Position numbers and translations under genes: made by a program
Part shown: piece by piece, positions 30,810-51,240 of the stretch
Position numbering within the stretch: position 1 is the first letter of the stretch
Layout of the letters: each line of letters begins with the position of its first letter
Notes under the pieces: model-generated
What the model saw: only the letters and a program-made list of their open reading frames with translations
Told to the model about the DNA's origin: nothing
Databases searched by the model: none
Assembly: GCA_017537245.1 (NCBI GenBank)
Contig: JAFYLD010000031.1
Coordinates: 742 to 64,741, forward strand
Source: Clostridia bacterium
GTDB lineage: Bacteria; Bacillota; Clostridia; Oscillospirales; Acutalibacteraceae
Length of the DNA: 64,000 nt
Direction: 5' to 3'

Positions 30810-31352
30810 CTACCTAGGAACAATAAACGGTATGCCAAAATAGTCGGTAAGTGATACAACAACGTTTGCGGCTATTGCCTCAATATTATCGCGTATCCAA
30901 AGCGCATCGTCATAATTATCGTGATAGGCAAACTCTATAAGCACACTTGGCGCGCGCGTGCGTCGCACCTCACCGAGAGCGGTAGTCGGCAACGCTTTAA
31001 CCAAATTGGGCAGCGGATATATTAGTTTTAAGTTATTAGAAATAATCTCGGCTGCGCGCGCACCATCAAGACTTGTCGGAAAATAATAAACTTCCGTGCC
31101 TCTACGGTCACCATCCCCACTACCCGTAGCATTAGAATGGAGTGCTAAATGTAAATCATAATTTCCCATATTTGACTGCGCAATAGACGATGCGGCGGTC
31201 ATACCAGGTGTGTTGCGCGTAAAAGAAATGCCGCTAGCATATAAATACGGCTCCATAGCGTCGGCAATAAGATTCATATAGTACTCTTCGTTTCCACCTA
31301 TTATATAAGGATTAAATTCCTGCGTTGACGGACTTAAATAAATACTTGGCAT
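30810..31352 (-). CDS. N-acetylmuramoyl-L-alanine amidase (Amidase_3 family)
   Basis: LALHSNA, GTEVYY and EFAYHDN motifs. No signal peptide. ATG at 31352 with a GGGGGAG SD is preferred. Confidence 0.75.
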   Translation of the reverse strand: MPSIYLSPSTQEFNPYIIGGNEEYYMNLIADAMEPYLYASGISFTRNTPGMTAASSIAQSNMGNYDLHLALHSNATGSGDGDRRGTEVYYFPTSLDGARAAEIISNNLKLIYPLPNLVKALPTTALGEVRRTRAPSVLIEFAYHDNYDDALWIRDNIEAIAANVVVSLTDYFGIPFIVPR

Positions 31353-31528
31353 AAAAACTCCCCCTTCCCACAAATTTATGCTTAAAATTCATATTTTATT
31401 AACAATAAATTCAAACCACTTTTTGCGAGCATTTAAGAGCATTTGGGCGAAAAATTAAGCAAATCAAAGTTTAACAAAAATTAGCATAAAATTCCTACCA
31501 AAAATTCTACATTTTTTGCAAAATTTAC

Positions 31529-31563
31529 TTGACTTTTTGGGCGTTTCGCCGTATCTTTATAAT
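31529..31563 (+). promoter_or_regulatory. possible promoter for the pot leader (weak geometry)
   Basis: TTGACT (31529-31534). TATAAT (31558-31563) is 23 nt away. The alternative -10, TATCTT (31552-31557), has a 17-nt spacing. Confidence 0.3.
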
Positions 31564-31599
31564 GTTAATATATGCATATAAATATTAATTTAACGCATC

Positions 31600-32046
31600 T
31601 GTGTAGAAAGACGGCCGGTACTAATGTGTGCCGTAGTTCACGTGTAGCGTAGAACTACGAAAAACCCTTTGTCAGGGCATACAAACAAACGGCTGGGGTG
31701 AGGCTGGCGAGTGTCAATACCGTCACGCCTGACAAATAGTAATTTTCTGCCCTACTTGTCTTATCGTTTGCAATACGACAGTATTGCTGCTCTCTTCAAC
31801 TTCGCAGGAACAAAAAATTCCTTATTTAGCAGGTCAAAGAGTTTCTCTCTGTCGCCTTTTTATGAAAGGCGACGCGTGAAATTTGCAGCAAGGCTATCGC
31901 CTTGCAAAAATAAATGCAAGCAAGGCAGGAAAAGGCGACGAGCGAAACCGTAATGGTATTGGCACTCGTCAGCCTCAGCGCAGGGTAAACGTAAAACTTT
32001 ACTACTGTCGACACTTGGGGTGTTTGACAAAGGGGGATGTGGTTAA
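31600..32046 (+). promoter_or_regulatory. long structured 5' leader / candidate cis-regulatory RNA upstream of potA
   Basis: No credible ORF. G+C is visibly above the flanking spacer. Has a 23-bp long-range helix (31699-31721/31955-31977), multiple hairpins, and a segment complementary to the potA SD. Confidence 0.5.
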
Positions 32047-33174
32047 ATGACCAAACAAAATATTATAGAACTAAAAGACATCTTCGTTTCTTTTGGCGAT
32101 GAAAAGGTACTTGACGGACTTAATCTCGATATTCGCGATAAAGAGTTTATCACTCTTCTTGGTCCTTCGGGTTGTGGTAAAACAACCACCTTGCGTATTA
32201 TTGCAGGCTTTTTAGACGCTGATAGTGGCGAGGTTGTTTTTGAAAGTAAAAATATAAATGGTGTGCCATCGTACAAGCGACAGGTTAACACCATTTTTCA
32301 GCGTTATGCGCTTTTTCCTCATCTTAACGTGTACGAAAACGTTGCATTTGGTCTTCGTGTTAAGAAGTTAAAGGAAAACGAAATAAAAGAGATAGTTACC
32401 GAGATGTTGCATCTTGTTAACCTAGACGGTTTTGAAAAGAGAAATATCTCTACCCTTTCCGGCGGTCAGCAGCAACGCGTTGCTATTGCTCGCGCTATTG
32501 CCAACAAGCCAAAGGTGTTGCTACTTGACGAGCCGCTTGCCGCTTTGGACCTAAAGCTTCGCAAAGATATGCAAAAAGAACTTCGTCGTATTCAGCGTCA
32601 GCTTGGTATAACCTTTGTATTCGTTACCCACGACCAAGAAGAAGCTCTTACAATGTCGGACCGCGTTGTTGTAATGAACAAGGGCAAAATTCAACAAATA
32701 GGTACTCCACAAGATATTTACAACGAGCCTGAAAACGCTTTTGTTGCCGACTTTATCGGCGAGTCAAATATTCTTGACGGTATTATGCGCGATGATTTTG
32801 TTGCGGAATTTTCGGGTCACGTGTTTGACTGCCTTGACAAAGGCTTTGACAAAAACGAAAACGTTGACGTTGTTGTTCGTCCTGAGGACGTTGATATTGT
32901 CGCTCCAGAAAAAGGCATGTTAAAAGGTGTTGTTACCTCTGTTGACTTTTTGGGCGTGCATTATGAAATCATCGTTGATATCGGCGGCTTTAAGTGGATG
33001 ATACAAACCACCGACGAGTGTTTTGTTGGTGATAACGTAGGTCTATTTATTGAGCCAGACGCTATTCACATTATGAAAAAATCAGAATATTCTGGTCTTT
33101 ATGGTGACTATAGTACATACAGCGAAGAGATGGAGCATCTTTCGGACGTAGAGTCGGAGGATGACGATGAATAA
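32047..33174 (+). CDS. potA: spermidine/putrescine ABC transporter ATP-binding protein
   Basis: Walker [34 protein letters not shown]-like C-terminal domain and an acidic tail. Confidence 0.9.
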
Positions 33175-33991
33175 AAAAAGTTTTGGTAGCCGTATAGTTG
33201 CGGCGCCCTATATAGTTTGGGCAGCAATTTTTATTATCGTACCACTCGTTATAGTTGCTTACTTTGCATTTACCGACGCAAACGGAGCGTTCGCGCTATC
33301 AAACTTTGCGCAAATCGGTAAATACAAAAAGGCGTTTGGACTATCTATTCTTTACGCCGTTATCGCTACGATAATAACCTTGTTTATCGCCTACCCTATG
33401 GCTTATTTTATGACCAAGCTTAAAATTAGTAATCAACGTATGATAATGATGCTCATTATGCTTCCTATGTGGATGAACTTCCTTATTCGTACCTATTCAT
33501 GGATTACAATTCTTGCAAACACCGGTCTTATAAATAAGTTTTTAACCTGGATAGGCATTGGACAAGTACAACTTATAAACACACCCGGCGCGGTTATACT
33601 TGGTATGGTTTACGACTTTATACCATATATGATTTTGCCAATTTATACCGCTATGTCAAAGATTGATAACTCGCTACTAGAGGCGGCAAGCGACCTTGGT
33701 TCTAACAGCTGGTCACGTATTCGCCGCGTTATTATGCCGTTATCACTACCGGGTGTTATATCGGGCATAACAATGGTATTTGTACCAAGTGTTAGTACCT
33801 TTTACATTTCTCAAAAACTCGGCGGCAACAAAGATATGCTTATTGGTGACGCTATTGAATACCTATTCAACACAGGCTCACAATACTATAACGTTGCGTC
33901 AACCTTGTCGTTAATACTTATGGTGCTAATACTTGTCTGCACCCTTATTATGAATCGCTTTAGCGATGACGAGGAGGCGGTTGTACTATGA
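33161..33991 (+). CDS. potB: spermidine/putrescine ABC transporter permease
   Basis: 6-TM permease with an EAASDLG EAA loop. The alternative ATG at 33167 is better spaced from the GGAGG SD. Confidence 0.85.
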
Positions 33992-34791
33992 AAACACTCT
34001 CTCGTATATATATCGCTTTAATTCTTTTGTTCCTTTACGCGCCTGTTGCGGTTATGATTGTTTTTTCATTTAACTCGGGCGGTAGCGTATGGGTGTTTGA
34101 AGGTTTTTCGCTTGATTGGTACAAGGGTCTTGCTACCAACTCGTCAATGCTTACTGCGCTTCAGCATACATTGATAGTAGCTGTGTTATCGGCAATTATA
34201 TCTACCGTTATGGGTACTGCGGCGTCGGTTGGTATTTTGGCGCTTCGCAAAAAGTTTACCCGCAGAGCAGTAATGTCGGCTACAAATATTCCTATGATGA
34301 ACGCAGATATAGTAACGGGCGTATCGCTTATGCTTTTGTTCGTGTTCGTTGGTAGTTTGTTTGGTCTTAAAGAGTCGCTCGGTTTCTTTACCGTACTTGC
34401 CGCTCACATTACTTTTAACCTGCCTTACGTTATTTTATCGGTTCTTCCTAGACTTCGCGCTACCGATATGAGTCTAAACGAGGCGGCGCTCGACCTTGGT
34501 TGCACACCTGTTAAGGCATTTTTTAAGGTTATTTTACCTTCTATTTCTACCTCGATTTTCACAGGCGCTATAATGGCGTTTACATTGTCGCTAGATGACT
34601 TTGTTATTAGCTATTTTACTTGCGGTCATTATCAGACGTTACCTATCGTAATTTACAATATGACCAAAAAGACGGTATCGCCTGACGTTTATGCCCTTTC
34701 AACAATTATATTCCTTGCGGTGTTTGTATTGCTTATACTTTACAACACCCTTCAAAGCAAGGCAGATTTAAGGAGGGGTATTCGTGCTTAA
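33988..34791 (+). CDS. potC: spermidine/putrescine ABC transporter permease
   Basis: 6-TM permease with an EAALDLG EAA loop. Start overlaps the potB stop. Confidence 0.85.
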   Translation: MKTLSRIYIALILLFLYAPVAVMIVFSFNSGGSVWVFEGFSLDWYKGLATNSSMLTALQHTLIVAVLSAIISTVMGTAASVGILALRKKFTRRAVMSATNIPMMNADIVTGVSLMLLFVFVGSLFGLKESLGFFTVLAAHITFNLPYVILSVLPRLRATDMSLNEAALDLGCTPVKAFFKVILPSISTSIFTGAIMAFTLSLDDFVISYFTCGHYQTLPIVIYNMTKKTVSPDVYALSTIIFLAVFVLLILYNTLQSKADLRRGIRA

Positions 34792-35887
34792 AAAAATATT
34801 TGCAGTATTGCTTTGCCTTACTCTTAGTATTTCACTTTGCGGTTGTGGTTACGAGTATTTTAACCCCGAGCTTGAAGCTAGCTACACAAGTGATTTAGCC
34901 GGCACCGAGCTTAACGTTTATAACTGGGGCGAATACATATCCGACGGCAGCGACGGTTGTATGGACGTTAACCGTGAGTTCGAACGCATTACGGGTATTA
35001 AGGTCAACTACACCACCTTTGAAAGTAATGAAACAATGTATTCCCAGCTTGATAACGGTGGCGTAAGCTACGATATTATCATTCCTTCTGAATATATGAT
35101 AGAGCGTCTTATGTCAGAAAATATGCTCGAAAAGATTGATATTTCAAAGCTTTCTAACTACAAGTACGTTGACACAAGTTATTTTAACCCCGACACAACC
35201 GGTCTTGTTGAAGGCTACGCTATTCCTTACAATGTAGGTATGGTTGGTATTATCTACAATAGCGCGCTTATTGACGAGCCAGAGCATTCGTGGACAGCTT
35301 TGTGGGATGAAAAGTACCGCAATATGTCGCTAAACTTTAATAATCCTCGTGATGGTTTTATGACCGCGCAAATGATTAAGGGTTATAGTGTTAACTCTAC
35401 AAATCTTGCAGAGTGGAACGACGCTTGCGAACTTTTAAAGAGTGGTAAAGACGTTTTGCAGTCCTACGTAATGGACGAAATCTACGGCAAGCTTGAAACC
35501 GGTGAGGCCGCTATTGGTCCTTATTACGCGGGCGACTATCTTGTAATGCAAGAGGTTAACCCCGATCTTAAGTTCTTCTACCCAGAAGAAGGCACAAACA
35601 TTTTTATTGACGCAATTTGTATTCCAAAGTGTGTTAAAAACTATGAGGCGGCGCTACTTTATATCAACTTCCTTTTAGAGCCTGAAATTGCTCTTGCAAA
35701 CGCTGAATATATTGGTTATGCTTCTCCTCACACCGCAGTAATAAATAATCCAGATTATTGCTATTACCAAAACGAAATTCTCTATCCAAAGAAAGAAGAT
35801 ATGCCCAAGGTAGAATATTATCGCAATATTCCCGAAGAGGTGCGTATGCACTACGAAAATCTTTGGCTAGATTTAAAACTTTACTAA
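34784..35887 (+). CDS. potD: spermidine/putrescine-binding lipoprotein
   Basis: Lipobox LSISLCGCG and PotD/PotF-family similarity. GTG start with an AGGAGG SD. Confidence 0.85.
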   Translation: MLKKIFAVLLCLTLSISLCGCGYEYFNPELEASYTSDLAGTELNVYNWGEYISDGSDGCMDVNREFERITGIKVNYTTFESNETMYSQLDNGGVSYDIIIPSEYMIERLMSENMLEKIDISKLSNYKYVDTSYFNPDTTGLVEGYAIPYNVGMVGIIYNSALIDEPEHSWTALWDEKYRNMSLNFNNPRDGFMTAQMIKGYSVNSTNLAEWNDACELLKSGKDVLQSYVMDEIYGKLETGEAAIGPYYAGDYLVMQEVNPDLKFFYPEEGTNIFIDAICIPKCVKNYEAALLYINFLLEPEIALANAEYIGYASPHTAVINNPDYCYYQNEILYPKKEDMPKVEYYRNIPEEVRMHYENLWLDLKLY

Positions 35888-51100: not shown

Positions 51101-51240
51101 TAGCCTGTATATTTGGTCGTGCGAATGGGCGGGTCCTATACGGCGGGAGGCTGTGAACCATGTCAGGCGGGGAACCGAGCAGCATTAAGCAGTTTTTTCC
51201 GTGCGAATAGTAAATCGGTCCATTCGTACGACCAAGCATA
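51101..51240 (+). ncRNA. ffs: signal recognition particle RNA (small, 4.5S-like); ends approximate
   Basis: Domain IV signature GUCAGG-CGG-GGAA-CCG-AGCAGC (51162-51183, GGAA tetraloop at 51171-51174). 16-bp closing helix 51113-51128/51220-51235. Conserved position upstream of dnaX-ybaB-recR. Confidence 0.75.

Follow-up and report, generated by a model that had tools for sequence, protein, structure and literature searches.

What stands in front of the spermidine/putrescine importer genes potABCD in an uncultured Clostridia bacterium of the Acutalibacteraceae, and could it be an RNA that controls them? The 64,000-nt stretch of DNA that we analysed (the window; contig JAFYLD010000031.1, assembly GCA_017537245.1) holds, directly upstream of potA, about 450 nt that an earlier note had proposed, from the letters alone, as a new cis-regulatory RNA closed by a 23-bp long-range helix. 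Comparison with related loci bore out the presence of a conserved structured element before potABCD but not the anatomy assigned to it, which measures ~190 nt rather than ~450 nt. We consider it probable that the region is a conserved ~190-nt potABCD leader, a riboswitch-like translational control element, into which a lineage-specific palindrome of 278 nt has been inserted. The conserved leader comprises positions 31595-31699 and 31978-32040, and the insert fills the space between them (Table 1).

The individual features that had been listed for the region are all present. The 23-bp helix joins 31699-31721 (TGAGGCTGGCGAGTGTCAATACC) to 31955-31977 (GGTATTGGCACTCGTCAGCCTCA) through 21 Watson-Crick and 2 G-U pairs, the hairpins at 31633-31658, 31851-31873 and 31888-31905 can form, the strings GGGGTGA (31695-31701) and CGTCAGC (31967-31973) are in place, and the G+C content is raised, at 0.45-0.49 over 31600-32050 compared with 0.25-0.29 in the spacer at 31400-31600. 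The region also reads as non-coding, as had been said: the sole sizeable open reading frame (ORF) on the + strand is a GTG-initiated frame of 80 codons (31711-31953) that lacks a Shine-Dalgarno (SD) sequence, a Pfam match and a gene call, and the other strand holds some short frames. By our own estimate, a near-perfect inverted repeat of 23 bp has a chance expectation of about 1e-5 in ~450 nt. The predicted RNA fold of 31590-32060 reached -179.9 kcal/mol relative to -128.5 ± 6.1 kcal/mol for dinucleotide shuffles (z = -8.4, equalled by none of 100 shuffles). The reverse strand folded nearly as well (z = -8.2), and the folding signal is therefore that of a palindrome at the DNA level as much as that of an RNA.

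A similarity search with PotA (375 aa) returned 80 loci from species-representative genomes, nearly all of them Acutalibacteraceae, Ruminococcaceae or unclassified Clostridia metagenome-assembled genomes from gut and rumen. Upstream inspection together with nhmmer placed the leader in 70 of these loci, once in each, directly upstream of potA and with a length of 140-250 nt. The nhmmer profile, built from 58 leaders, matched the window at 31589-31697 (E = 3e-16) and again at 31978-32054 (E = 3e-14), and across the loci it found a single region each, divided in two where an insert or a truncated leader interrupts the match, and located 5' of potA in every case. What is conserved upstream of homologous pot operons is the flanking ~190 nt and not the enclosed ~230-nt domain around which the earlier note had built its candidate. 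Two of the 70 leaders are truncated (L010, 2867-3009; L015, 2871-3009); both keep the 5' half, the anti-SD segment and the SD and have lost GGGUAUCGCGCAG and hairpins P5 and P6, and they may be degenerate, switch-less variants.

The insertion can be read directly from the empty sites. In the closest species (L001-L004, L007 and L073; PotA 93-97% identical) the sequence corresponding to 31560-31699 directly abuts that of 31978-32060, both by BLAST and in the alignment, and the missing stretch is exactly the 23-bp helix and everything inside it, which includes the hairpins at 31851-31873 and 31888-31905 and the 80-codon ORF. Contigs that encode an identical PotA protein are divided on this point, five being filled (L081-L085) and one empty (L086); further filled contigs are L102-L104 (PotA 98-99%), and further empty sites occur in L105 (PotA 98%) and in L106 and L121-L127 (PotA 95-97%). 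The empty site GGGGTATCGCGCAGGG is common to L086, L105 and every 95-97% relative sampled, and in L086 the site CGGCTGGGGTATCGCGCAGGG is the family consensus. The insert was found in 8 independent assemblies (L081-L085 and L102-L104) as two haplotypes ~8% apart, and it is therefore no assembly artefact. Its insertion point lies inside the conserved junction GGGUA^UCGCGCAG, where L005, a different species, has only the two arms, fused into a 45-nt hairpin. Thus, 31700-31977 is an insertion that is confined to one species-level lineage and polymorphic within it, and the ~450-nt size, the 23-bp helix, the ~230-nt domain and the two enclosed hairpins belong to that insertion and not to the conserved element; the hairpin at 31633-31658 is the sole listed feature that falls in the conserved element. 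Hairpins inside the GGGUAUC junction were seen only in the window's lineage and in L005. Leaders of L013, L017, L018, L075, L037, L041 and the L016 group carry extra hairpins elsewhere, be it at the 5' junction, within the loop of P6 or through a lengthened P5, and variable hairpin expansions are accordingly common in this leader RNA.

The two haplotypes also reveal how the insert evolves. Between the window-type and the L084-type contigs, 23 of 278 insert positions differ (8.3%), compared with 9 of 1128 nt in potA, all synonymous, and 5 of 176 nt in the flanking conserved leader, so that the insert evolves at or above the neutral rate and diverges faster than the synonymous sites of potA. Thirteen of the insert substitutions fall at predicted paired sites, where seven keep the pair (mostly in the outer arms, by a change from G-U to Watson-Crick), six break it and none is compensated on both sides; the covariation that the earlier note had proposed to look for in the 23-bp helix and the hairpins is absent here, as is the structure itself from the relatives. 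The inner part of the L084 haplotype adopts a different predicted fold, and, read as an inverted repeat, the two halves of the insert are identical at 88 of 143 positions. We conclude that the insert is a recent, strain-polymorphic and fast-evolving imperfect palindrome, weakly constrained or unconstrained, that lies outside the conserved RNA.

These data bear on the proposal that the whole ~450-nt region, 23-bp helix and enclosed domain included, is one large functional cis-regulatory RNA, which we now regard as very unlikely. Its very strong predicted folding (z = -8.4) is offset by a reverse strand that folds equally well, and the persistence of the insert as two haplotypes in 8 assemblies by its absence from all sister species and from near-identical strains, as well as from the other sequences searched for a homologue. 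Both G-U pairs of the 23-bp helix are placed such that the + strand keeps its pairing, yet the six broken pairs, the lack of compensation and the rapid divergence noted above all run against this reading. The insert does contain, at 31728-31736, CCUGACAAA (CCTGACAAA), a 9-nt complement of the leader's anti-SD segment TTTGTCAGG (31668-31676). The two haplotypes share this string unchanged, and part of it falls in an internal loop predicted for the rod. A decoy role toward the anti-SD is conceivable from the complementarity, but an inverted repeat of 9 bp is roughly what about 700 nt would yield once by chance.

Nor is the insert at all likely to be a gene for a small basic protein, a reading to which we assign the lowest probability of those considered here. 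The 80-codon frame has stayed open in both haplotypes despite 19 substitutions, with a ratio of nonsynonymous to synonymous change of ~0.33, but an antisense frame interrupted by stops scores equally (0.32) and, by our estimate, the synonymous excess is not significant after correction for six frames and transition bias. The GTG start without an SD, the lack of a Pfam match and the lack of a gene call in any assembly point in the same direction.

How the insert arrived is a separate question. In form it is like a miniature inverted-repeat transposable element (MITE): the terminal inverted repeats are 23 bp long (19 bp perfect in the L084 haplotype) and end in 5'-TG...CA-3', the element is small (278 nt), its sole ORF has no Pfam match or recognisable protein product, and filled (L081-L085, L102-L104) and empty (L086, L105) sites alternate between close strains. 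Bacterial MITEs and palindromic intergenic repeats include Correia, RUP, bcr1 and ERIC. The insert resembles such elements in its length, in its long terminal inverted repeats, in a transcript that would form a hairpin, in its placement in an intergenic or 5'-untranslated region (5'-UTR) and in strain polymorphism, and departs from them in that the sequences searched yielded no target-site duplication, no further copies and no similarity to deposited plasmid or phage sequence. Comparison of filled with empty sites, in which a target-site duplication was sought, revealed none; empty GGGGT-ATC-GCGCAG becomes filled GGGGT-[GAGGC...GCCTC(A/G)]-GCGCAG, with ~3 nt (ATC) replaced and no direct repeat. 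A second copy was found neither by BLAST in the 64-kb window and the other fetched loci (~0.64 Mb) nor in plasmids and phages (distant-mode searches) or viral contigs, and the few external matches were chance seeds of 17-27 nt in unrelated, mostly high-G+C contigs. A metagenome scan for the arm pattern likewise returned only chance 19-mers and their like (19-27-mers); the species' pot locus is itself missing from that collection, which makes the scan uninformative on copy number. A true MITE, with other copies in this genome and a transposase acting on it in trans, would account for the terminal repeats, the presence/absence polymorphism between near-identical strains and the related short hairpin at the same site in L005, and we hold it to be possible although we lean against it for want of a duplication and of a second copy in the sequences searched. 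We call the insert MITE-like.

With the insert set aside, the leader itself has a consistent internal organization. Alignment A1, made from 61 leaders chosen by a stricter three-motif filter, contains invariant or near-invariant blocks, namely GCAUCUGUG at the 5' end, GAAAAAC, the anti-SD C[CU]CUUUG..., GGGUAUCGCGCAG and, at the ribosome-binding site, CAAAGGGGGAUGC; within the ribosome-binding region CAAAGGGGGATG is invariant. The 58 distinct leaders that furnished the nhmmer profile were also used for folding. Independent minimum free energy (MFE) folds of their cores, between GCAUCUGUG and GGGUAUC, gave the same architecture in 47 of 58, with an outer helix P1.1, an internal loop, a helix P2 and a three-way junction that carries the variable hairpin P3 and the mini-hairpin P4. 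P1.1 occurs as CGAUCG/CGGUCG, GCAGUUUCA/UGAAGCUGC and GUGAAUUUU/AAAAUUCAC, and P2 in the compensatory versions GUGUGCC/GGCACAC, CUCCUGC/GCAGGAG and UUUUUGC/GCAAAAA. When pairing partners were shuffled, canonical pairing dropped from 100% (by construction) to 54% for P1.1, 72% for P2 and 70% for P3, and over 500 such shuffles the maximum never exceeded 61-78%; when partners came from an unrelated sequence, the best helix measured 4.5-4.6 bp instead of 6.6-6.9 bp (P1.1: 4.5 instead of 6.6). On the plain MAFFT alignment the variable helices are misaligned, so that RNAalifold picked out P1 and the anti-SD helix alone; the per-sequence folds with shuffle and swap controls were used for this reason. 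In P1 (31595-31599 with 32036-32040) 100% of cells are paired, and in P1a (31600-31604 with 31978-82) 96.9%; P1 (GCAUC/GAUGC) never varies and P1a (UGUGU/GCGCA) changes on one side only, a pattern that is consistent with pairing and leaves it unproven. The internal loop was variable in orientation: the string GUACUAA is on the 3' strand in L031, L034 and L053 and on the 5' strand in the window's subgroup, with the A-rich strand opposite it in both. The module looks flipped by 180 degrees, and it may serve as a tertiary-contact or binding module.

Covariation also surrounds the ribosome-binding region, where three segments co-vary: A, the anti-SD within P4; B, the 5' strand of P6 (32006-32013); and C (32025-32034), 5' of the SD and overlapping it. 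The pairings A:C and B:C are mutually exclusive. On the MAFFT alignment the anti-SD:SD helix (31665-31674 with 32025-32034) is 97% paired and shows both-sided changes at four pairs, three of them in 17-21 sequences, in the versions GUCA/UGAC, GUUCA/UGAAC and GCGG/CCGC, and the 5' strand of P6 changes along with the other two segments (UGUC, GCGG, UCG). For the three-helix structure tested, none of 500 shuffles reached the observed covariation score, and sliding of the partner reduced pairing to 37-66%. One leader then combines two of the features that generically mark a riboswitch: a conserved, structured domain whose helices covary and whose unpaired positions are kept and, by computation, mutually exclusive pairings around the SD.

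Eight sequences, namely six representative leaders and the leader of the window, once with its insert and once after removal of it, were folded and indicated which arrangement is favored. In unconstrained folds the A:C, SD-sequestered form was the ground state in 7 of the 8 sequences; in L031 it lay 1.5 kcal/mol above the MFE (-57.0 against -55.5, essentially tied). With the SD forced single-stranded, every sequence tested yielded the full P1/P1a, P1.1, P2, P3/P4, P5 and P6 fold, at a cost of 1.6-14 kcal/mol relative to the A:C fold. The leader of the window at full length gave this same fold too, plus one branch, formed by the insert, between P1.1 and P1a; the basal pairs of that branch are predicted to take up U, A, U and C of the conserved junction.

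A putative mechanism for the leader can be assembled from these elements. Transcription would start from the promoter-like site at 31529-31557, with a predicted start at ~31564-31570, and the CTTGAC and TATCTT blocks of that site are kept in the alignment of sister loci. The transcript would fold into an aptamer-like domain of P1/P1a, P1.1, the internal loop, P2 and the three-way junction carrying P3 and P4, with the near-invariant strings GCAUCUGUG, GAAAAAC and GGGUAUCGCGCAG at its 5' end and junctions. The anti-SD segment CCCUUUGUCA in P4 could pair instead with the ribosome-binding region UGACAAAGGG, and P6 would compete for the same ribosome-binding strand, so that the leader would control translation initiation of the importer by switching between an SD-sequestered and an aptamer-like, SD-free state. 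The switch might be driven by a small ligand, for which gene context makes a polyamine, or a metabolite related to one, the leading guess. Since computation puts the ground state at the sequestered fold, ligand binding would most simply turn expression on, a sign suggested by these energies only. In short, the alternation of the two folds in the cell, the binding of a small molecule, the identity of that ligand and the sign of regulation are all inferences. The insert, which carries no terminator, would form a long hairpin between P1.1 and P1a and leave the rest of the fold able to form; since it absorbs conserved junction bases, it may alter or disable regulation.

Several points weigh against the reading of this region as a riboswitch-like leader with a palindrome inserted into it. 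The leader sequences all come from one bacterial family, a narrow phylogenetic breadth. The both-sided changes in the anti-SD helix stem mostly from a few subgroup splits and thus represent few independent events. The 100% pairing of P1.1, P2 and P3 is circular, the pairs having been read from the per-sequence MFE folds, and weight attaches only to the shuffle and swap controls. P1, being invariant, has no covariation to support it, and the pair that flanks it is canonical in only 36 of 58 sequences. Biologically it would be odd for an importer to be switched on by the ligand that it takes up, and either the polyamine guess or the deduced sign loses weight accordingly. The insert has neither a target-site duplication nor a second copy in the sequences searched. 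Finally, a protein-bound leader and a ligand-bound leader look the same to sequence analysis.

This last point leads to an alternative in which the leader acts through a protein, as an operator or autoregulatory site bound by, for example, a Pot component or a global RNA-binding protein, or else is a constitutive structure that sets mRNA stability and basal translation. In E. coli, repression of the pot operon is helped by the PotD precursor. The SD-sequestered ground state could likewise amount to plain constitutive damping, whereas three co-varying, mutually exclusive segments combined with near-invariant three-way-junction strings are the classic anatomy of an aptamer and its expression platform. 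Against a protein partner, no regulator gene is adjacent, and operon and leader occur in different neighborhoods across species. We consider this alternative unlikely, though it is a serious competitor, and retain the riboswitch-like translational leader as the better account.

If the leader is a riboswitch, it does not belong to a class that we could recognize. We scanned the whole window with the 4227 models of Rfam 15 at the gathering threshold and 31400-32100 at E <= 10, together with insertion-free leaders from L002 (2740-3020, E <= 10) and nine relatives (E <= 1). No family matched the region or the insertion-free leader beyond noise such as bxd_4, IMES-2 and snoR19, and the Rfam check therefore offers no known family that explains the element; the fold, with P1/P1a, P1.1, internal loop, P2 and three-way junction, is unlike all 4227 models. 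The suggested resemblance to the ydaO/cyclic di-AMP riboswitch (RF00379) did not hold up, with no covariance-model match on 31400-32100, L002 2740-3020 or the nine relatives, even where the insertion is missing. That likeness consists of two short strings only, of which CGTCAGC lies wholly within the insert and GGGGTGA straddles its left boundary.

The earlier note's statement that no polyamine riboswitch class is established in bacteria is outdated. A spermidine riboswitch, the only validated polyamine class, was validated in 2023 as a variant of SAM-I (Salvail et al., PMC10853860); it is rare, with a consensus from 13 representatives, adopts the SAM-I four-way-junction fold upstream of speE, speB and ldcC, and acts as a transcription-termination off switch (PMC10853860). 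The leader shares with it a cis-regulatory RNA tied to polyamine homeostasis in Bacillota, a tie that for the leader comes from gene context. Membership in that class was rejected: the leader gives no match to the SAM family (RF00162), places a three-way junction on an extended stem and has no terminator, the terminator scan of the + strand over 31200-32200 having returned no intrinsic terminator-like site. The leader precedes an importer and has an anti-SD/SD platform, whereas the spermidine riboswitch precedes biosynthesis genes and has a terminator platform. Closer in platform are translational riboswitches with anti-SD, SD and competing hairpin, which the leader resembles in 5'-UTR location, a multi-helix domain with covarying stems and near-invariant junctions, an anti-SD embedded in that aptamer-like domain, mutually exclusive helices at the ribosome-binding site and the absence of a terminator. 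The ldcC motif, an orphan candidate upstream of decarboxylase genes and occasionally of potA, has been proposed to be linked to polyamine homeostasis (Weinberg et al. 2017, PMC5737381). In the Rfam library, at E <= 10, the ldcC motif gave no match to the leader, its presence in Rfam 15 being assumed.

In the searchable full-text literature no account of such a pot-associated leader came up, and the conserved leader is apparently an undescribed motif. The pot genes of Borrelia burgdorferi are reportedly subject to spermidine-responsive termination in the 5'-UTR and may exemplify RNA-level pot control, presumably by a different mechanism. A bolder proposal is that the leader is a second, structurally unrelated riboswitch class responsive to polyamines or their precursors, the first to control uptake and not synthesis, with the window as a natural junction-insertion allele; this we put forward as speculative and, on balance, doubtful.

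Table 1. Positions in the window of the leader, its insertion and the pot genes
Feature	Positions	Strand	Remarks
Promoter-like site	31529-31557	+	-35 TTGACT, 17-nt spacer, -10 TATCTT; consensus scan
P1 5' strand GCATC; P1a 5' strand TGTGT	31595-31599; 31600-31604	+	GCATCTGTG invariant across family
P1.1, CGGCCG with CGGCTG	31612-31617 with 31690-31695	+	MFE folds; 4-6 canonical pair types per position
Internal loop, GTACTAA opposite AACAAA	31618-31624 opposite 31684-31689	+	MFE folds
P2, TGTGTGC with GCATACA	31625-31631 with 31677-31683	+	MFE folds and shuffle control
P3, variable hairpin	31632-31659	+	All subgroups, differing in sequence and length; the 31633-31658 hairpin of the earlier note
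Junction AAAAAC, then P4 CCT-TTGTC-AGG	31660-31676	+	Near-invariant; A73-C77 at least 90% conserved
Anti-SD segment CCCTTTGTCA	31665-31674	+	Within P4 (loop and 5' stem); 10-nt perfect complement of 32025-32034 (repeat I7)
Junction, first half GGGT of GGGTATC	31696-31699	+	Alignment A1; nhmmer profile ends at 31697
Imperfect-palindrome insertion, 278 nt	31700-31977	.	Outer arms form the 23-bp helix; inner part a degenerate rod
P1a 3' strand GCGCAG	31978-31983	+	Second half of conserved block GGGTATCGCGCAG; nhmmer profile resumes at 31978
P5, variable hairpin GTAAA...TTTAC	31985-32002	+	Length and sequence vary, pairing kept; GUAAUACGG...CCGUAAUUUUAC in L001 and L003
P6, hairpin TGTC-G-ACAC ... 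GTGT-TT-GACA	32006-32029	+	3' strand overlaps anti-SD partner
Ribosome-binding region	32025-32040	+	TGACAAAGGG is the anti-SD partner; SD AAAGGGGG 32029-32036; P1 3' strand GATGT 32036-32040
potA	32047-33174	+	PotA passes curated cut-offs of spermidine/putrescine transporter models NF043075 and TIGR01187
potB	33161-33991	+	Best match is Pot family, below cut-off
potC	33988-34791	+	Best match is Pot family, below cut-off
potD	34784-35887	+	Best match is Pot family, below cut-off

The surroundings of the operon change from genome to genome. Among close relatives (L081-L086, L106 and L121-L126) the upstream neighbors of operon and leader differ, with an amidase gene here and a cation ATPase, TatD or phosphoribosyl pyrophosphate synthetase gene elsewhere; leader and operon, being found together in these differing neighborhoods, behave as one unit. 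Visual inspection of the leaders revealed no conserved upstream ORF or leader peptide, the short AUG-initiated frame of the window's subgroup being unmatched in other subgroups. In L106 a gene caller places a 48-aa ORF (754-900) over the greater part of the insertion-free leader, up to the start of potA; the prediction is probably spurious, lying as it does over the structured leader. The sole match in the window at the Rfam gathering level is a bacterial small signal recognition particle RNA (RF00169) at 51127-51224 on the + strand (58.9 bits, E = 2e-10).

The locus carries a methodological caution, in that the most eye-catching structure turned out to be evolutionary noise within a real element, and folding of a single sequence was misdirected by it. 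The naturally occurring filled and empty alleles already offer an experiment on whether function depends on the junction GGGUAUC. Should the leader prove to be a new polyamine-responsive class, they would form a ready-made pair of wild-strain alleles for the study of junction function, with the insert located in the most conserved junction of the aptamer. To our knowledge, the regulation of polyamine import outside E. coli is largely uncharted, and the leader is a concrete orphan riboswitch candidate for polyamine uptake in the uncultured Acutalibacteraceae of gut and rumen.

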